Shown one piece after another: positions 16,727 to 58,680 of a stretch of 64,000 bases of DNA. The position numbers were made by a program, and so were the translations under genes. How positions within the stretch are numbered: position 1 is the first letter of the stretch; each line of letters begins with the position of its first letter. Source of the DNA: Chrysemys picta bellii (Eukaryota). The DNA lies in the NCBI RefSeq assembly GCF_011386835.1, contig NC_088791.1:206274001-206338000 (forward strand), read 5' to 3'. The notes beneath the pieces are model-generated. The model did no database searches, had not been told where the DNA came from, and saw nothing but the letters and a program-made list of their open reading frames with translations.

Positions 16727-17295
16727 TGTTAGGCTCTGATAGAGGCCTCTCTACGGGATAGGAGAGCAGGCAGATATCAGACACAGTGTTGGTATATAAT
16801 ACTCTAAATATTTTTATGGATTACAATATAAACCCCACTCACTCCACATTCACACTCCTTTCATACCACACCAGAATCTGAAGATCTGAAAGAATCCCGA
16901 TGGCTAGTCAAAATTCAGTCCAATCACAAGGCCTGGGGAGTCCCACGTTACACGCCTCTTCTTTTTCAGGACTCTGAGACAGTGTCTAACTCCAACTTCA
17001 GCTATAGCAAACAACCTTTTTTATAGACCAGCCCCTTGCATCATTAGCTCTTTGTCTAAGTCTTTCATCCATAATTCCAGAAGAGAGGTTCCGGGCAGGC
17101 CGCCATAATCCAAGACATTCCATTTCCTCTTATGGACATGACAAAGTTTGTTTTGCACAGACAATTCTTGACTGCTCATAACCTTAAATCCTTGCTTCAG
17201 CTGCCAGCATGCAACTCACATACTCATGTCAAGCATACAGCATTTATAGTAGGCCCAGATGGCCTATAGCGTATTCCAACATATACATCACAACA
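16727..17295 (-). repeat. 3' LTR (569 bp)
   Basis: TGTT...AACA termini; aligns with 21797-22351; TATA (minus) at ~17019-17025; polyA signal reads CATAAA (16813-16818). Confidence 0.96.
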
Positions 17296-17306
17296 GTCCC
17301 CCTTTT
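17296..17306 (-). promoter_or_regulatory. Polypurine tract AAAAGGGGG plus AC dinucleotide before U3
   Basis: Minus strand reads AAAAGGGGG-AC-TGTTG at the 3' LTR boundary. Confidence 0.88.
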
Positions 17307-17342: not shown

Positions 17343-20049
17343 TTATAATTTTGCAAGCAGCTCAGCTTTATATAGTTCTCATTCCAAAACTGCTTGTCAT
17401 TTTCTTATTTGACAGTACAAACACAGCATGACAAACATTAATAGAATCATTGACATGAACAATATAACAATAGGATACAATGCCTCATTCAGGAGGGCTG
17501 TAGCACTGGGACACCATTCCTTAGAAACATTGTACCAATGGTGGACTGTCAATTCTTCCCCTTCTTTTCCTAATTTTAATATTTGACCATTATGCAACAA
17601 GATACTTATCTTTCCCAGCTAGGCAGATTTAGATACATCCTTTGCATATTGTTTTATTTTTTTTCACTTTTATCAACCAATTCCTCCCATTGTTCCCAAG
17701 GTACCCCTAAGTCAAAGGACCAGTCCCCATCTTTTGGTTCCCAAATGATTTCCTTTTTTAAGAATAAGGGTCCCCGATAAACAATTCCTTCAATAATAAC
17801 CTCTGTTACATTACATTTGCATGACTCGATTGGACCTTTTTCTGTCATATCTCCCCAAAATATATATTTTTCAGTGGTCACAACACAAATGCACCCATTG
17901 CCTAAATCAAACACTCTTGTGCCATTGGGGCTAAATACTGTATTATACAATGTCCACTTGAATTATTTGGAGGACATACCTCTAAAGAACAAGTTAGCTC
18001 TGGGCACATCCATTCATTTTGCCTGCACGCCTCACAACGTTTTACCAATTCCACTAATTTATAGCCCCCCTCTTCCTGAATCAAATGTCTTCCCCTTATT
18101 TCTATTTGCCATAATTCTCTGTTCATAATCTTTGGCAGCATCCCGGCCATTGCCGCTCTTTTCTTTTTTCCAGTGTTATCCTGCCCTTCCAATCCCCTTT
18201 TAGAGTGGTCTGATTCCAATTAAACCCAAGGTGTTTCTTCCATCCTATAATTCGTTGTCTCTATATATGGGAGTCTTTGAACAACTCAAAGGGTCATTGC
18301 CCATTACTCAGTATATTGACTATCCTCTCTATATACCGTATCCCATAAGCTTGAATCTGTACACATAGTATTGCTAATGCAGTCGTGTTATTAATTTCTG
18401 ACATACTCAATAAATTAGCATTTAAAGATGCTTCCAAGGCTTGTATTTGTTTTACTTGGACCACTACATTCCTTATTCCTGGCGCTGATAATGTGCCAAC
18501 ATTTTGTATTACATGCGTATGTATGGCTCCCAAAATCTCACCCAACGTTGACATTTTCTTTTGTAATGTCTCAATAACAAATGAACTCAACACCCCAACC
18601 CCAGCGCCAATGCCACCCACAATATACTCTCTGATACCTCTTTTACTTCTTTTAGCTCCATCTCCCCATTGTTGTTGCCACGTTAGTAATAGAGGCAAGG
18701 CATATGGCATACACTCTGAATGTTGTGCACTCACATCTAATTGTGACCCCTCCAGCCAGATCGTTTGGTGCACAATAGTTGGGGCTTCAATTACTTCCCC
18801 CTTCATCTGCCATAATTCTTGGTGCTGTTTTATTTACTGGTATTTGATTAAGAAACATGAAATACCTACCATATCACCAGGGCCCTCCCTAGCTATTCTG
18901 GGGCCCTACGCAACCCCCCCAAGGGTGTGTGTGTGGGGGGGGGCAGGCCTCTGCAGAGGAGGAAGCGGGGGGGCTGGCCCCAGGCCTCTGCGGGAGAGGA
19001 GCAGGCCCCAGGTCTCTGTGGGAGGCTGGCCCCAGGCCTCCGCAGGGGTTGGGGCAAGGAGCAGGCCCCAGGCCTCCATGGTGGGGCTGGCTTGGTCGGC
19101 AGGGGGGAACCACCCCCCCAGCACTCACCAGTGGCATGGCTGGGGCCGGGTCGCTGCACTCCTGCTGCTGGTGAGTGCAGCCCCGGCCCTGCTGCAGAGC
19201 TCAGGGGAGTGAGGGTGGGGCTGGGCAGGGGTAGGAAGAGGCAGGACTGGGGCAGGGTGGGGGCGGAGCAGGGGCAGGAGCCCTGGGGAAGAGCCGTAGT
19301 AGGGGCTAGAGCAGCTACGTACTTTGAGTAGGGAATGACGGCCCTGCATATCCCCAAAAGTATATTCCCCTATTGATTTTCCTGAAACAGCTTAATTTCA
19401 CCATTATGGAATTTACCATAGCGTCATACCTCCACACTTCGAAAGCCGCTGACTCATTCCATCCCACATGGACATTAGCCAATTCTTTTTCATAAATCAC
19501 ATCCAGGGTAGTTACATTAAATCCCAAATTCCAAAAAGTGCAATTCAGGATGCTTATATTTGGGTTATTTTCATTATAACTAAATTTAAATGTCAACCAG
19601 TGCTCCCCTTTTATAATATAAAAATACCTCCATTGCTTCTCCAAGTCCTCTGGTTTTAAATATTCCCATATTAAATTCTTACCATTTTCCCACCATATTT
19701 CAAATTTTACCTCAAAGGGTTTCCACTCACATCTGTCTTTGTTTGGTCCCATTTTCTCCATTGTGTCCCATTGATAGTCGAACGTATTATTCCCTTTAAT
19801 CCATACCTCCATTTTAGAGGTGCTCCCATGTGTATATCCTTGTACCCCTAAACTTTCCCAGATACTTACAAAACATAAAAAACAGAAACCATATCCCCAC
19901 CCTTCAGGGTGCCATTGACTTTCCCATTTTTCCCGAATCATTGCTGACAATGTTAGAACTTTTACTTTAAAATCAATTTTCATTCTCTGCAAACTTTCCG
20001 CTTTTCTGGTTCCACTTTTGCACACCTCTTGTGTTGAGGTCATGGTCAT
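17343..20049 (-). pseudogene. env: Envelope glycoprotein (class I fusion), disrupted by MITE, frameshifts and stops
   Basis: Hydrophobic signal GYGFCFLCFVSIW; sequons NNT, NIS, NCT, NVT, NES, NKT; RSKR|GIREYIVGGIGAGVGVLSSF; heptad-like region; Cys-rich CPELTCSLEVC, GCICV, SCKC; HHWYNVSKEWCPSATALLN then TM anchor YPIVILFMSMILLMFVMLCLYC. Confidence 0.92.
18878..19346. mobile_element. hAT-type MITE inserted in env
   Basis: CAGGGCC/GGCCCTG termini; 8-bp TSD CATATCAC (18870-18877) vs CATATCCC (19347-19354); removing it restores the frame ...YFWGY|GRYFMFLNQ. Confidence 0.92.
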
Positions 20050-20311
20050 TATTCCATAAGAATAATGTCCAGTGCCTCTGACTCTACTACCCCAAGCACT
20101 TTTGTTAAGCCTTTGCTAAACTCTTCTGTCTTCACTTGAGCTCTGGTATTCTTCTTCCTAAAATGTAAATGACACAAAACAATCTTTCCACCAGACAAAT
20201 AAAGCAAAGCAAAGCGAATATAAGCAGCAAACCAATTGCAAAAGTTGTTGCACCATATCCACACTCCCAATCCAGGATCCGTTTGGGATATCCTCCAGTG
20301 CAGTTGGACAT
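20049..20311 (-). CDS. Putative accessory small single-pass membrane protein (59 aa as is; ~87 aa if one frameshift is repaired)
   Basis: Starts 13 nt after a TTTTGGTTTGTTTTACAG acceptor; MSNCTGGYPKRILDWECGYG-ATTFAIGLLLIFALLCFICLV; second frame RKKNTRAQ...DIILME* ends in TAATG overlapping the env ATG. Confidence 0.5.
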
Positions 20312-20348: not shown

Positions 20349-21776
20349 CTAATCTTTGGGCCATACCTTTAATTGTGATGTGTGTACTCATTTCCCCTTT
20401 TTTTTCTTTGTTAATTTGCACTACAGTGAGGGAAATTTTATTCATAATTGAAAATGGTCCAACACATTTTGATTCTAAGACATGATCTTTTGGTGTCAGC
20501 CTCAGATACATCCCCTATCCCCTATGTTCCATAATTTCGTATCTTGGGTGGCCTGTGAGTCCCTATATTCTCTTGCTTTCTCAGTTGCATCTGTTAATCT
20601 AAATTCCATTTTCTTAAGTTCAGTCAGTAATTCTTTAACCCATTGAGTAACCGATACTTCCTCTACATCCCCTTTTCCTTGGTACAGTAGAGGGCCCCAC
20701 AGTCTCATAGGCCTTCCAAAGAGAATTTGGTATGGCTGGTACCCTGTACTTCACCGATCACTACTTTGAATTGCTGCCAACATCAATGGTAATTTCTCTG
20801 CTCAATCTTTACCTGTTTCCTGTACCACCTTTCATAGAGCCTTCTTAATAGTTTGATTCATTTTCTCTACTGATCCTGATGATTGAGGACGGTAAGGAAT
20901 GCGTAACTGCTGCTTTAGTCCTAAAACTTTCAATAAGCTTTTCACTACTTCCCCCACAAAATGCGGTCCATTTTCCAAATCAATTGGTCTCAGAGTTCCA
21001 TACCTGCTAAAAACAACTTCCCATAGTTTCTTAGCGGTTGTCTCTGCAGTATGGTTCTGGATAGGAATCGCCTTCACCCATCCAGAAAAAGAATCCTCCA
21101 CCACCAGCAAATACTGATTTCCTCTGGAAGTTTTTGGCAACTTATCAATATAGTCCATTTGTATCCTACTCCACGGCCCTACAATTCTCTGATGTAACAA
21201 TGGCCCTGCACTAGGTGTTCTATTGCTGTCTGCCATGCATTTTATACAATTTTTAACAAATCTTTCTACATCTTCCTGTACTCTAGGTCAAATTCCAATT
21301 TGTTTTACCTTAAAAAGCATATTCTCTATTCCTTGATGTGCCATGGAGTGGCAGACATTAATAATTTCTTCCCTTTGGGTTTTTTCAGGTACCCACTTTA
21401 CCTCTCCTGTCTTTTTGTTCACTGCATATCCCCCTGTACCCTCCAGTTTCCCCATTTTTCTTCTGGCTTAATCTCCTGCACTATAGCCTGAGCTCTAGTA
21501 ACCACCGCAATTCCCAAAAGCTCTTTTGCTGCTTCCACCCTGGCCAAGCTATCAGCATTATCATTCCAGAATTTCTCGCTTTTGATGGCCTTTATGTTGT
21601 ACCTTCAGTTTCACTGGATTCCTCTTTAACCAATTATAAATTCATTTCCAGTCCTTCTTTTGGACCACACTTTTCCCCTCAGCTGTTTCCCAATTATTTC
21701 TTTTCCAAGTCCCAATCCAATAAAACAATCCTTGTACTACAAAATCTGAATCTATATAAACGTTCAGGCAATCCAC
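20349..21776 (-). pseudogene. pol: pol remnant: RNase H C-half + integrase
   Basis: RH: NVYIDSDFVVQG..W..NNWETAEGK..KGHQ..FWNDNADSLAR; linker AVVTRAQ; HHCC CHSMAHQG..KNCIKC; core QMDYID..VVEDSFSG..DLENGPHF..PYRPQSSGSVEKMNQTIK; STGYQPYQILFGR; GPF; ends K(W)VHTSQLKVWPKD*. About 11 stops/frameshifts by hand. Confidence 0.96.
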
Positions 21777-21794
21777 TGCCCACATTCTCCACCA
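21777..21794 (-). promoter_or_regulatory. Primer binding site, tRNA-Ala(AGC)
   Basis: TGGTGGAGAATGTGGGCA, 2 nt (TT) from the LTR end; 17/18 complementary to the vertebrate tRNA-Ala-AGC 3' end TGCCCGCATTCTCCACCA; mismatch at a CpG. Confidence 0.85.
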
Positions 21795-21796
21795 AA

Positions 21797-22351
21797 TGTT
21801 AGGCTCTGATAGAGGCCTCCCTACAGGATGGGGGAGCAGGCAGATACCAGACACAGTGATATAAAATACTCTAAATATTTTTATTGATTACAGGATAAAC
21901 CCCACTCACTCCACATTCACACTCCTTTCATACTACACCAGAATCTGAAGATCTGAAGGAAATCCCAATGGCCAGTCGAAATTCAGTCTGATCACAAGGC
22001 CTGGGGAGCCCCATGTTACACGCCTCTTCTTTTTCAGGACTCTGGGTCGGTGTCTGACTCTAACCTTTTTTATACACCAGACTATTGCGTCATTAGCTCT
22101 TTGTCTGTTTACTAAGCCTTTCATCCATAATTCCAGAAGAGCAGTTCCAGGCAGGCCGCCATAATCCAAGACATTCCATTTCCTCTTATGGGCATGATAA
22201 AGTTTGTTTTGCACAGACAATGCTTGAGCAGTTATAACCTTAAATCCTTGCTTCAGCTGCCAGCACGCTACTCACATACTGATATCAAGCATATAGCATT
22301 TATAATAGGCCCATATGGCCTATAGCGTATTGCAACATATACATTACAACA
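21797..22351 (-). repeat. 5' LTR (555 bp)
   Basis: TGTT...AACA termini; AATAAA (minus) 21880-21885; TATAAAA (minus) ~22068-22074; adjacent PBS. Confidence 0.96.
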
Positions 22352-22503: not shown

Positions 22504-23027
22504 TGTTGCCAGCCCAAAAGGGCCCGAGGAGGCAAACAGCAGAGTTCGTTGCACGGTTTGCTTCGCACTAATAGAGACACCAGGTGTGGAGAAGCAAAAC
22601 AACTTTATTCAAGAGCTCTGAATAGGCACTAGGAGACCAACATGTCTCAAATCAAGCGCAGCAAATACAAGCAAGTTTTCCCTTTTATATTCCAAGCAGT
22701 TTCTGTGCAGGCTTTGTCTGTTACTTTTCCTCCTACCCCTCCTTCCCTTCCCTCCTCAAGCAGTTGCAGTTAGGAAAATTCCCATCCGTCTGCTTATCTT
22801 TGACCTTGTTAGTATGAACGAAACAGCAGCTATCTGCTAGAAAAGCTGACCATTACATTACTGCTTTAGCCTGCTTCAGCATGTAAGCAGTTAGCATAGA
22901 TGTAGGTGAAAGTTCACAAGATGGAGTCACTGTGGCTCACTTAGACCCAGAGCAAAGGAGTTTCATCGGCACTTATGGCCTTCCACTCCCCTGAGTTACT
23001 TGGTAGCTATGCCTAGTGACACCAACA
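22504..23027 (-). mobile_element. Solo LTR of a second family
   Basis: TGTTG...CAACA termini; perfect 4-bp TSD GACC (22500-22503, 23028-23031); minus-strand TATAAAA ~22683-22689 and AATAAA 22604-22609. Confidence 0.88.
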
Positions 23028-26799: not shown

Positions 26800-26989
26800 G
26801 GGGGGAGGGATAGCTCAGTGGTTTGAGCATTGGCCTGCTAAACCCAGGCTTGTGAGTTCAATCCTTGAGGAGGCCATTTAGGGAACTGGGGTAGAAATCT
26901 GTCTGGGGATTGGTCCTGCTTTGAGCAGGGGGTTGGACTAGAAGACCTCCTGAGGTCCCTTCCAACTCTGATATTCTATGATTCTATGA
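26800..26989 (+). mobile_element. Turtle tRNA-derived Cry SINE with CR1 (ATTCTATG) tail
   Basis: A box TAGCTCAGTGG, B box GAGTTCAATCC; 3' CR1-like end GGTCCCTTCCAACTCTGATATTCTATGATTCTATGA. Confidence 0.92.
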
Positions 26990-28599: not shown

Positions 28600-30269
28600 T
28601 AGCCCAAGTATAGATAGAATCTCAAATGTTTTAATCATCTTGTTGTCTAACCCTGCTAAGAACAGCTGTGCACACAACAGTGCTTAAAACGCTGGCAGTT
28701 GTTAGTGTTAAGAGCTGGTGTAAACAGCTGCACAGCGACAGAGCTTTTCACGGCATGCACAAGTTTTACTGGCCTCACAAACCCAGGAACTATGCTACAT
28801 ATTTCTGAGCACCATCTACTGGCACTTTCTCTGTTAACTGTTTACATATGCAGACACAGTGAACTCCTGTAACAGCATGTGCTTATGTTTCTGTGCAATG
28901 GTAGGAGATTTTAAGAAAAATGACACAGTAGACAAGACCTCATATCTGTCTAAATAAGCATATCCAAACTAGTTATGCCCTCCCTGGTTGATATTTCCTT
29001 TCAGATACATCTTGATTTTCAAACCACACAGAACAGCAGTATGAATTTCTTACCACATTCCAGTGTAATGTAGCTCATGTTTAGTTCAGCAGCATGTGAG
29101 CCCTGGTCTAGCTAGGCTATTTAAGGTATTCAACAGATATTTTTTTTTAAGTCAAAATATGTCTGGTCTTGACTTAGTGGCACTTCCGTGAACAGACATT
29201 CTTACAGATGATAATTTAAGCACCTGTAACAACTTGAATGTTGAATACAATTATTATTTTGTTATAATCTAGTTAACTGAAAACTGAGACCTTTTCCTTC
29301 TATTTATTGGTGTTTCAAGCAGCAGTAGGTCAGAAGAAGCCATTTGACTTGTTTTCTCAGAGATGCTTGTATTCAGTGTGCTCTCTCTTCTGAGATAGAC
29401 AAGGAAACATTTGCAAAGGATTATTGGGGAAAGTCTTTGCCTCAAAACCCTGTGTGCTGGGTGCAGCAGTAGTAATTTGCATTGTGCTATATCATGTTAC
29501 ATCTTGATTGGGGTAGGGCCACTGACTCCTCCTTTCCAGATCCAGACCATCCTGAGTTTGGGACAGTGGCCGAGCCTGGCAGCTTTTCCCAAAGCAACAT
29601 CCATCCCTGCCATCCATCGTGTTGGAGGTGAGCTGTAAAAGGTCACTGGTCTCTAGACAACACTACTAGATAAGGAGTGTGTGTGTGTGGAGGCAGGAGT
29701 GGGTGTCTATTGCTGTGCTTACTGTAAGAGGAGGAATTATGTGGAGGAAAAAGGGTTCTGGAAGGATCCTCCACAGGTTTGGCTAGTGTTCAATGGTGTA
29801 TCAGAACCAAACATGCAAAACGTTTAGGTTGCGTCATCACTAAGTGTATATATGTACTTTTGCCATTGCGAGGTTGCTTCACTCCACACTGTACTTTTAC
29901 ATGTCATCTCTAAGTCACCTAGGAGATTACTTTTTCCTTAAATGATACTGCAGAAGCAATCGGTTAGATGCTTATGGTAAGCCGCTTCATTGAAATGGGA
30001 GGAAGCTGGGTGCTCTCTGTTAAGAGTTCCAGACTCTGGACTTCACTCTCTGCCTCAATCTGGCAGCCTAGATTTGTTGACACTTCTGCTGACACTTAAA
30101 ATGTCTCTTATTATTATAAGAATATACTGTTTAGTTAGCTCCAGCATTATACTTGGCCCTCAAAAATAGACCATTCCTGCTCTGAAAAGCTTCCATTCAA
30201 AGACAGACACATTGAAGACAGGAAACTCTGGGAATCCCAGTTTTTACATTTTGTGGAGTTTATTTTTTG

Positions 30270-31859
30270 AGGAGACAAAAAGGGGGAAAAAAGAGAACGC
30301 GGGGAACTACAGACCACCGGTCAGCCTCACCTCAGTCCCCGGCAAAATCATGAAACAGGTCCTCAAGGAATCTATTTTGAAGCACTTGGAGGAGAGGAAG
30401 GTGACCAGGAACAGTCAACATGGATTCACCAAGGGCAAGTCATGCCTGACCAACCTGCCTTCTGTGATGAGATAACTGGCTCTGTGGATATGGGGAAAAC
30501 GGTGGATGTGATATACCTTGACTTTAGCAAAGCTTTTGATATGGTCTCTTACGGTATTCTTGCCGAAAGTTAAAAAAAGTATGGATTGGGTGAACGGACT
30601 ATAAGGTGGATAGAAAGCTGGCTAGATTGTCGGGCTGAACGGGTAGTGATCAATGGCTCGATGTCTAGTTGGCAGCTGGTGTCAAGTGGAGTGCCCCAGG
30701 GGTTGGTCCTGGGGCCTGTTTTGTTCAACATCTTTATTAATGATCTGGATGATGGGATTAATTGCAGCCTCAACAAGTTCGCAGATGATACTAAGCTGGG
30801 GGGAGAGGTAGATACACTGGAGGGTAGGGATAGGGTCCAGAGTGACCTAAACAAATTGGAGGATTGGGCCAAAATAAATCTAATGTGGTTCAACAGGGGG
30901 AGGGATAGCTCAGTTGTTTGAGCATTGTCCTGCTAAACCCAGGGTTGTGAGTTCAATCCTTGAGGGGACCACTTAGGGATCTGGGGCAAAATCAGTACTT
31001 GGTCCTGCTAGTGAAGGCAGGGGGCTGGACTTGATGACCTTTCAAGGTCCCTTCCAATTCTAGGAGATAGGATATCTCCATTAATTTTTTTTTATAAGGA
31101 CAAGTGCAGAGTTCTGCACTTCGGAAGGAAGAATCCCATGCACCGCTACAGGCTGGGTACCGACTAGCTAAGCAGCAATTCTGTAGAAAAGTACCTGGGG
31201 ATTACAGTGAACAAGAAGCTGGATATGAGTCAGCAGTGTGCCTTTGTTGCCAAGAAGGCCAATGGCATATTGGGCTGTATTAGTAGGAGCATTGCCAGCA
31301 GATCGAGGGAAGTGATTAGTCCCCTCTATTCGGCACTGGTGAGGCCACAACTGGAGTATTGCGTCCAGTTTTGGTCCCCCCCCCCCACTACAGAAGGGAT
31401 GTGGACAAATTGGAGAGAGTCCAGTGGAGGGCAATAAAAATGATTAGGGGGCTGGGGCACATGACTTACGAGGAGAGGCTAAGGGAACTGGGGTTATTTA
31501 GTCTGCAGAAGAGTGAGGGGGGATTTGATAGCAGCCTTCAATTACCTGAAGGGAGTTCCAAAGAGGATGGAGCTAGGCTGTTCTCAGTGGTGGCAGATGA
31601 CAGAACAAGAAACAATGGTCTCAAGTTGCAGTGGGGGAGGTCTAGATTGGATATTAGGAAACACTATTTCACTAGGAGGGTGGTGAAGCACTGGAATGGG
31701 TTACATAGGGAGATGGTGGAATCTCCATCCTTTGAGATTTTTAAGGCCCGGCTTGACAAAGCCTTGGCTGGGATGATTTAGTTGGTGTTGGTCCTGCTTT
31801 GAGCAGAGGATTGGACTAGATGGCCTCCTGAGGTCTTTTCCAAGCCTAATATTCTATGA
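30270..31859 (+). mobile_element. CR1 LINE 3' portion (RT to 3' end) interrupted by a SINE
   Basis: [69 protein letters not shown]; ends ATTCTATGA. Confidence 0.95.
30896..31095 (+). mobile_element. Full-length Cry-type SINE (T-tailed) inside CR1
   Basis: A/B boxes; splits CR1 sequence GGTTCAACA|AGGACAAGTGC; ends GGATATCTCCATTAATTTTTTTTTA. Confidence 0.9.
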
Positions 31860-31884
31860 CCTTGGAACAATAATCAGTTCCTAG

Positions 31885-32350
31885 ATCTTAAGGCCACAAT
31901 GTACCATTGTGATCATCTAGTCTGATCTCTTGCATAACACAGGTCATAGGACTTCCCTGAATTAGTTCCTGTTTGAATTAGAGCATATATTGTAGAAAAA
32001 AACATCCAATCTTGATTGAAGAACTGCCAGTGATGAAGACTCCACCACATCCTGTGGTCAGTTGTTCCAGTGATTCATTACTCTCACTATGAAAAAATTG
32101 CATCTGATTTCTAGTCTGAAATTGTCTCGCTTGATCTTCCAGCCTTTTGTTCCTGTTACACCTCTGTCTGCTAGATTGAATAGCCCTGTATTATCTAATT
32201 TCGTATTCCCATGTAGGTATTTATGAACTGTGATCTCTCATCCTTTTCTTTGTTAAGATAAATAGATTGAGCTCCTTGAGTCTATTGCTATAAGGCATAT
32301 TTTCTAATCCTATAACGGTTCTCATAGCTCTTCTCTGAACCCTCTCCAGT
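31885..32350 (-). mobile_element. Older CR1 3' fragment
   Basis: Reverse complement gives CR1 3' coding/UTR motifs similar to 58018-58680. Confidence 0.75.
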
Positions 32351-34608
32351 TTAATGGCAAATTCACCAGAGAAGTAGGTGGTGGTGGTGGTTGTTTTAAT
32401 GAAGGATAATTTTTACTTTCTGACAGGTTTTTTCTCCCTTAATAGATGTAACATTGTTAAAAGGCAGCATAAATAACTACGGTGTATTACATAACTAATT
32501 CCCTCTTGTTTCTGACCAGAATTATGTGCTTCAGTATATAAAAGCAACATATTCAGGATTTTTTAATGAGGAAAATGGCTTTTGACCCACTCTGATGCCC
32601 TGATAATTGAACTGAAGGGTCACAGCTGAGCAAAAGATTTTTTTTTTCTGTGTGTTGGAGGGTTGATTTGCTTTACAGCGAGACAGTGTCAGATTGGATT
32701 CAATGAACAGAACGCAGTCCTATGTATCTGGGACATTCTGCAGCAGTGTTGGGGGCTTGCTGTCTCCAGAAACTATTTTAACACTCAAGCTTTCACATAA
32801 GGCTCTTTCCATTTATCTCTAGTTTTTTCTTTAGCATCTGATAAAATGTTTCAGAAGAGAGACGAAAGAAACAGCTGATCTGTATTGTGAGAAGAAAAAC
32901 AATCTGAATGAATGGAATCAGATAACATTTCCATTGAAAAGTTCAGGATGAGGTGCCGCAATATTGCAAAGTCACAAAATCACATCTGTAAGATGGAAAG
33001 CCTTTCCTTTATGTTTTCAGGGTGCTTTCTAATTGAAGATTAAATGAAATGTGGTAATATCCTGCTCCTAGTTATTCTTTCAAGGGTGAATTGTAATCTT
33101 CTAATTTTATTTTTGCAGCTCTTGAGGGGCTGCTCCCCTTTGGGAAATATAGAGCTATTCAGGTGATGAGGGAAGTAGAGAGGATGTTGTATAAACAGAA
33201 CAAAATATTAAACAATACGATCCAAATGTTTCAAGACTCTGATTAAACTAGAGGAAATGACTATAACTGGAGTTTCTAATAACAATAGATTCTGGGAAGT
33301 GAACACTAGCCTCTGATATCTGCCTTCCACAAATCTGTAAATAACTTTAACATGCCCATGAATGTCATAGCAGTGTATCAGCAGTATCTGAGAGCATTGT
33401 TCAGAAAAGGGAAACGGAAAAGACTGAGAACATTTTGAATATGCTTCTGACCCAAAGAAAATGAGACTATACCTTTTTTAATAGACGACTTGCCTTTTCT
33501 TCTAGGAAAATAAGCCATAAAATAGAAACCTATTCTTGTGAAATCTAATATTTTAAAATGGCTATTTAGAGACAAATTGTGTTGATGCATAAAGCTTGGA
33601 TCATTCATTTAATCTTGATCTAATGAAAACCATATCTGAATTTGCTAAATTAATTCCTCTCACTGAAAAGTGAGAGAGAGGAGCTTAGATAGAATACCCT
33701 GATTTTATTAAGACATTATTGAATGGTTTCCTCTATCAGATATCCTGAAGAAACACAAATTAACACTTTTATCACTGCAATGAGCACTTTAAAAATGTGT
33801 TAATTTAAACAGGATGTAGCTGTATTATATCTAGGATATTGTGATTCAATGCAAAGATTACACCTTAAATCTGTCCACGAGAGGAATCTCAGGAATAAGT
33901 CAACACATCCATCCTCCATTAACAGCATAGACATTGCTCTGTGGGCCAAAGTCAGAAGTACCATTTACAATATAGCCAACAGTTCCTTCTGTCCCCTCCT
34001 CCCCACCTGATTTTTACACTGTTTGTATCAATCATAACAGCAACACAGGCACAAGCAGCGCAGCAGCTAACATCCAGAATCAGAGTTGGCACTTGTGATG
34101 CTGGAGACACTACTTCATTGCTCTTGGTTCAATGACAAATACAGGAAGGTTGTCAAACCTCTGAGTGATGCCAGGAGCTGCAGCATGATTTGGCAGAATC
34201 ACTGATGATTCTCGGGTGATTGGGAAGATGGATTGGCCATGCACTTGCCAACCTGGACTGAGTATGGCTTCTGAGGAAGAGTTTTGTCTTCTAAATATTG
34301 CAGCTCTCTGGCTACCAGGAAGATTTAGAATAGCACAGTGGAGGTGGGGAAAGTAGAGGGGAAACAGTTCTTCATTAACGGAACAAATAGGGTGATTTAA
34401 AACTTGCTGACATGCTGTGAACCACTTCTCCAAACCTTTAGGAGCTACTAATATGTATGCAATAAATAATTCACTGATATTAAATAAAACTGAATGCATA
34501 GATTCTTGTGGCAATCTTGCTGATGCATCAGTTGAGTGACAGAAGGTTAGGTATTAGGACTAATCTTTGGCAAGCATTTGTTTCGATGTTAAAGTTAATC
34601 TGGAATAA

Positions 34609-58017: not shown

Positions 58018-58680
58018 TATTCATAGATTCCAAGGCCAGAAGGAGCCATTGTGATAATATAGTCTGACCTCCTGCGTAACACGAACCATATAACTTTCCC
58101 AAAATAATTCCTAGAGCATATTGTTTAAAAAAAATCCAATCTTGATGTAAAAATTGTCATTGATGGAGAATCCACCACAATCATTGGTAAATTGTCCCAC
58201 TGGTTAATTACCCTCGCTGTTTAAAATTTACGTCTTATTTCCCATCAAATTTTGTCTAGCTTCAACTTCCAGCCATTGGATTATATAACACCTTGCTCTG
58301 CTAGACTGAAGAGCCAATTATGAAATATTTGTTCCTCACATAGGTACTTATAGACTATAATCAAATCACCCCTTACCCTTCCCTTTATTAATATAAATAG
58401 ATTGAGCTCTTTGAGTCTAGCATTATAAGGCATGTTTTCTAGTCCTTTAATCATTCTTGTGGCTCTTCTCTGAACCCTCTCCAATTTATTAACATCCTTC
58501 TTGAATTTTGGGCACCAGAACTGGACACTGGCAAGCATTGGTTTCACCAGTGCCAATTAGAGAAGTAAAATAACCTCTCTACTTCTACTTAAGATTCCCT
58601 TGTTTCTGCATCCCAGACTGTATTCTATCTTTTATACACACCACCATGACTTCCAAATCTTTTTTAGAGTCAAAATCATC
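58018..58680 (-). mobile_element. CR1 3' fragment
   Basis: Minus [34 protein letters not shown]. Confidence 0.9.

Follow-up and report, generated by a model that had tools for sequence, protein, structure and literature searches.

Class I fusion glycoproteins have been divided into class Ia, with orthoretroviral envelope (Env) proteins, and class Ib, with the F proteins of paramyxoviruses and pneumoviruses, spike and foamy virus Env, a split that sets the foamy viruses apart (PMC11468914, available part). In the accessible portions of the respective papers, F-like Env has been published for foamy viruses (PMC11468914), for lokiretroviruses (PMC7947760) and for the errantiviruses of invertebrates, the last in a preprint that deferred the endogenous retroviruses (ERVs) of vertebrates (bioRxiv 2023.10.26.564294), and independent gains of Env are preferred for Loki and canonical retroviruses (PMC9040795). 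The 2009 description of Ovex1 (PMC2717909, accessible part) reports RX(R/K)R sites and neither CKS17 nor CX6CC, leaves open whether ORF3 is an envelope gene and gives no fold. A literature search that covered few subscription papers found none assigning an F-like fold to Env of the Ovex1/SpeV type, and the available portions of PMC12583693, PMC9967133, PMC11521997, PMC12129022 and PMC13709493 make no statement on the fold of Ovex1-type Env. The present analysis concerns an env gene in the genome of the turtle Chrysemys picta bellii, carried on the minus strand of a 64,000-nucleotide stretch of contig NC_088791.1 (the window, whose own coordinates are used throughout). The segment at 17343-18650 is the broken transmembrane (TM) half of the env of an internally deleted ERV, and the protein that it once encoded was, on the evidence of structural models of its relatives, very probably a class Ib fusogen like paramyxovirus F1 and the foamy TM subunit.

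The transmembrane half of env

The TM half begins at a sequence motif for furin-type cleavage, RSKR (18650-18639, minus strand), which is followed from 18638 by a glycine-rich fusion peptide (GIREYIVGGIGAGVGV), a heptad-like stretch, LCVQIQ...NGQ, LPKI..WQIE, a CEAC/WMCP/EVCP/GHC cluster, RVFDLGNGCICV, SCKC, HHWY at 17543, PSAT.LLN and a hydrophobic anchor at ~17480-17412. The initial annotation had listed these motifs in this order and put the anchor about 390 codons from the cleavage site; all of them were found, and the distance is 388 codons. It had also seen no CX6CC motif, of which there is indeed none in the three minus-strand frames of the TM region; nor was an immunosuppressive domain of the CKS-17 type seen there by eye. 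The CX6CC motif and short ectodomain of gamma-type Env are both lacking from this gene with its 388-codon ectodomain. Relative to two single-frame sister copies, the TM region contains three frame changes (near 18170, 17930 and 17665), and internal stops are present at 18296, 18263 and 17621; this copy is dead and encodes no functional Env. A profile of 106 natural homologues, from which the window rows were excluded, nevertheless matches three pieces of the window colinearly (E 5.9e-23, 1.2e-5 and 4.2e-15), and 200 shuffled versions of the region reached at most 3.7 bits, as opposed to 69.5 bits for the real sequence, so the family match is not due to chance.

The Env family and Ovex1 ORF3

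The 2.37-Gb genome contains at least 86 matches to the piece spanning the surface subunit (SU) and TM; identity is 45-76% in about 25, and the remainder are more distant. Of these sites, 17 were retrieved for comparison. The same genome also harbours a related family with a natural env frame of 668 codons, whose TM is 27-30% identical to that of the window. This younger family (loci L001-L003 and further sites) comprises several near-identical copies in which the 668-codon env is open and the gag and pol frames are long; the turtle Loki elements, by contrast, are described as "highly degraded" in the available text of PMC7947760.

A word-based homologue search returned only one protein; a three-row profile run with HMMER against 1.84 billion representatives gave 415 matches. 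Twenty of these were looked up, two of which are Pol proteins; those named include chicken LOC422926 (873 aa), proteins of crane, owl, junco, box turtle, Pelusios, Pelodiscus, alligator and four frogs, and one of Bufonid herpesvirus 1. The distance from fusion motif to anchor is 361-399 aa in 10 of 16 homologues, these being the ones in which a motif search located the peptide, and CX6CC is present in one of the 16. Cysteine columns are conserved across the family in the SU tail (92%) and at LCVQ (86%). Chicken LOC422926 was identified as Ovex1 ORF3 because its length and its neighbour LOC422925 fit the available part of PMC2717909. Colinear TM homology with conserved cysteines and the HHW motif makes the window gene a member of the Ovex1-ORF3 Env family, with which it shares RxxR, a GGxGAG fusion peptide, the cysteine pattern, HHW..W.P.AT, an ectodomain of ~390 aa and the lack of CX6CC and CKS17. 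The two differ in that Ovex1 ORF3 is an intact, single-copy, host-retained gene, whereas the window holds one of many copies, and a broken one, and their identity is only ~26-34% in the matched pieces. The Ovex1/SpeV-like elements CrocERV37-39 (PMC4299795, available part) have Env of the same family.

The Bufonid herpesvirus 1 match is a hypothetical protein (AXF48633.1, 928 aa; HMMER E 4.4e-29) that is a full member of the Env family, 23% identical to chicken Ovex1 ORF3 over 563 columns, with an RPKR site and the anchor kept. By sequence, this toad herpesvirus is likely to have captured a retroviral env. Three other database proteins (P0038, P0055 and P0018) have this type of Env joined to RVT_thumb/RNase H, retroviral protease or integrase domains; they may reflect Env on alpha/beta-like backbones, as in TERV (PMC2717909, available part), or gene-model chimeras. 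A further cluster from Falco (P0192, ~1293 aa) is a Pol-like open frame with the degenerate reverse transcriptase (RT) motif YGDD; in several falcons it groups with isoforms of SCARA3, and it may represent the domestication of a pol exon from a related retroviral lineage.

Predicted fold of the envelope protein

Two relatives encoded in this genome were modelled with AlphaFold: the natural open-frame Env and one sister copy from the family to which the window gene itself belongs. All 17 Foldseek matches of the former in the PDB at E<=0.001 are paramyxovirus or pneumovirus F proteins. The top match of the latter is foamy virus Env (8RM1), and foamy Env ties with the F protein of respiratory syncytial virus (RSV) and with that of human metapneumovirus (hMPV). 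In these alignments the cysteine-rich beta head of the models (DI/DII) is superimposed on that of F or foamy Env, residues 133-200 of one relative correspond to the N-terminal F2 part of F from Newcastle disease virus (NDV), parainfluenza virus 5 (PIV5) and human parainfluenza virus 3 (hPIV3), and model residues 131-135 onward run with F residues 19-34 onward, suggesting that the N-terminal subunit supplies an F2-like segment of the core. A language-model look-alike search with the chicken homologue put Fusion_gly clusters first (0.92). These matches to class Ib fusogens support the F1-like layout proposed in the initial annotation. That annotation had also set foamy Env against F as competing best hits, but the choice is a false one because foamy Env is itself F-like (PMC11468914, available part).

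The class Ib order of furin site, fusion peptide, heptad repeats 1 and 2 (HR1 and HR2) and anchor is present in the window. The models predict a fusion peptide, HR1 and a central helix with the conserved LCVQIQ cysteine (18294..18638, ending in an internal stop), a cysteine-rich two-domain beta head equivalent to F domains I and II (17760..18177, spread over two frames), an HR2-like helix (17545..17700, limits approximate, with a frame change and a stop inside; helices 522-571 in the relative), and the membrane-proximal HHW..W.PSAT stretch, anchor and short tail (17397..17544). The C-terminal part of SU (18651..18877) is predicted from the model of a relative to be the F2 equivalent, with strands, a helix and the conserved cysteine, F2 being represented by the last ~65 SU residues. 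The family thus resembles the F proteins of hPIV3 (1ZTM), NDV (3MAW), PIV5 (2B9B), RSV and hMPV in its predicted F2/F1 layout, ectodomain length and cysteine-rich beta head, and differs in its retroviral context and in an additional N-terminal SU head of at least 200 codons. Foamy Env (8RM0/8RM1; PMC11468914, available part) is alike in being a retroviral Env with a class Ib core; its receptor-binding domain, however, is inserted between the subunits, whereas the additional head modelled here lies N-terminal of the F2-like part, and the backbone is not foamy-like.

By analogy with paramyxovirus F, the fusion peptide would be freed by furin cleavage at RSKR, the F2-like SU tail would likely stay disulfide-linked to the LCVQ cysteine, and the N-terminal SU head would likely bind the receptor. 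HR1 would then extend and the fusion peptide insert, after which HR2 would fold back with HR1 into a six-helix bundle.

Searches of BFVD with a model also matched the glycoprotein of a fish filovirus (Thamnovirus; E 3e-8) and Env of walleye epidermal hyperplasia virus 1 (WEHV1; E 1.2e-4), which hints at a class Ib-like nature for the two proteins. The top BFVD match is an unnamed 928-aa entry, probably AXF48633.1.

Alternative explanations

The likeness to F might arise from convergence or as an artefact of modelling, if AlphaFold and the aligners draw towards F what is a long class I TM made of helices and small cysteine-rich beta domains. Several results weigh on that side: predicted template modelling scores and TM-scores are low, Z is middling, identity to F is 7-18%, and there is no significant match at the sequence level. 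The family profile ranks hPIV3 F first among PDB sequences at an E of only 0.44, and the comparison with Pfam Fusion_gly (PF00523) called for by the initial annotation gave no match for the window pieces, relatives and 24 homologues (8 + 8 + 24 proteins scanned). The Pfam scans gave one weak match to Baculo_F (E 0.03), and phmmer with the open-frame relative found nothing relevant in the PDB. Support for the F likeness from sequence by itself is weak, and the missing PF00523 match bears on membership of a Pfam family, not on fold class. Against an artefact, class Ib fusogens come first in each of four structure searches, made with two different models, and likewise in the PDB profile search and in the language-model search, and the structure matches cover F2, fusion peptide, HR1 and the cysteine-rich head colinearly. 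Artefact or convergence is judged very unlikely. Orthoretroviral Env (HIV, HERV-K, MLV, HTLV) is not among the matches listed in the four PDB structure searches, nor foamy Env among those listed in one of the four, absences that exclude nothing.

Another explanation is that the element is a degraded turtle lokiretrovirus with the F-like Env already published. According to the available part of PMC7947760, the Env of Loki resembles PF00523 (E 2.2e-7) and has RXKR, and 9 of 11 turtle genomes contain degraded Loki copies; the window shares with Loki a retroviral context, the RXKR site, an F-like TM and a broadly similar integrase motif (WS.IQ.D.I). The two differ, however, in RT motif, SU length, fusion peptide and membrane-proximal motif. 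Sister copies that retain RT, colinear with RNase H, integrase and env like those of the window, have IPQG or IAQG and YVDD, not the Loki signature PFG..NSPA.FNIF carried by all 11 passages shown in the available part of the PMC7947760 supplement. Comparison of the reference sequences in that supplement was by eye only: in the part available, Loki Envs have only ~110-120 residues before RXKR, against an SU of ~300 codons or more here, and a fusion peptide of the FLGGLIAAA type unlike that of the window family, and HHW occurs 0 times in the portion searched, where line breaks could hide some. A lokiretrovirus is very unlikely on these grounds.

The RT of PQG/YVDD type instead makes a third, Ovex1/SpeV-like lineage likely. 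The motifs of the window and its sister copies are compatible with the Ovex1/SpeV pol lineage. In the available part of PMC4299795 (Table 1), ERV3 and ERV4 are without the GPY/F motif after integrase and Ovex1/SnRV-related ERVs may carry it; the window has GPF and a relative GPY, unlike ERV3 and ERV4. An RT tree of 33 rows (no named references; matches covering <70% or <96 residues excluded) groups the window family in one clade (100/100) and does not resolve the backbone. Taken by sequence motifs, the backbone likely belongs to the "intermediate" Ovex1/SpeV/SnRV-like retroviruses, neither Loki nor foamy.

Foamy viruses have a separate pol, accessory genes (tas/bet) between env and the 3' long terminal repeat (LTR), a tRNA-Lys primer and an Env of ~985 aa. 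Least likely of all is an endogenous foamy virus with an ordinary foamy Env, for which 8RM1 as top match of the own-family model and prototype foamy virus integrase as best PDB sequence match to the window integrase (E 9e-14) can be adduced, but against which stand a relative's Pol that is nearer among solved structures to murine leukaemia virus RT (E 4e-74) than to foamy RT (1.5e-56), a gag, stop codon and pro-pol all in one frame in the relatives, a tRNA-Ala primer, an env that leads directly into the polypurine tract and LTR, the absence of any foamy Env sequence among PDB matches to the family profile at E<=10, and the modelled position of the SU head.

Structure of the provirus

The env gene lies in an LTR-flanked, internally deleted provirus of 5.6 kb, all of it on the minus strand. 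The 5' LTR (TG...CA; 21797..22351) and 3' LTR (16727..17295) are direct repeats at a Kimura two-parameter distance of 0.099 (547 aligned bases), and no target-site duplication was found at the provirus ends (ATAGA against TTGGG), for which age or recombination may account. The primer-binding site (21777..21794) matches the genome's own tRNA-Ala(AGC) at 17 of 18 bases, and sister copy L007 has the same site at 16 of 18. Directly after it is a remnant of RNase H (21520..21776, lower end approximate; Pfam RNase_H E 1.5e-6), where a tblastn match with the relative's Pol begins at residue 553, in mid-domain; since RNase H opens in this way right behind the primer-binding site, the leader, gag, protease, RT and tether have been deleted. 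A broken integrase (20398..21374; Pfam rve E 1.1e-10) with the C-terminal GPF motif follows.

The N-terminal part of SU (19347..20115) is a 266-codon stop-free frame, colinear with the sister copies at 70-80% nucleotide identity, that matched no family in the Pfam scan; it is likely the receptor-binding head, a region not folded here. SU is split by a GC-rich insertion of 469 bp (18878..19346), absent from sister copies L004, L008 and L013, with short terminal inverted repeats (CAGGGCC) and an 8-bp target duplication (7/8), which we take to be a non-autonomous hAT-like element. The env tail stops ~100 bases short of the polypurine tract (17296..17306) and LTR, with no accessory region between.

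Just upstream of the 5' LTR is a second LTR-like stretch (~22520-23000, minus strand) with TATA-like and AATAAA motifs recognized by eye. Fragments of short interspersed elements and CR1-like long interspersed elements are present at 26801-26981, 30170-32353 and 58127-58488; repeats of these types fit a turtle host, as do the named homologues of the env gene.

Implications for retroviral envelope evolution

Among retroviruses, an F-like Env is already known from foamy viruses and Loki. What is new concerns the ERVs of sauropsids and amphibians: models predict that their Ovex1-type Env is a class Ib fusogen, carried on a backbone that is likely neither foamy nor Loki. At the window locus there is only a dead copy, and the weight of the finding lies at the level of the family. 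A third retroviral lineage with class Ib Env, in turtles, alligator, birds and frogs, would shift the balance towards class Ib as the ancestral retroviral Env. We tentatively suggest, as a possibility short of an even chance, that class Ib Env is ancestral and survives in foamy viruses, Loki and the sauropsid-amphibian Ovex1-type lineage (perhaps also in epsilonretroviruses, WEHV1 Env having been matched), that birds retained the ovary-expressed Ovex1 ORF3 as a candidate domesticated F-type fusogen, and that the toad herpesvirus captured an Env of this kind. The family assignment offers a testable identity for Ovex1 ORF3, an intact gene expressed in the gonads of birds.
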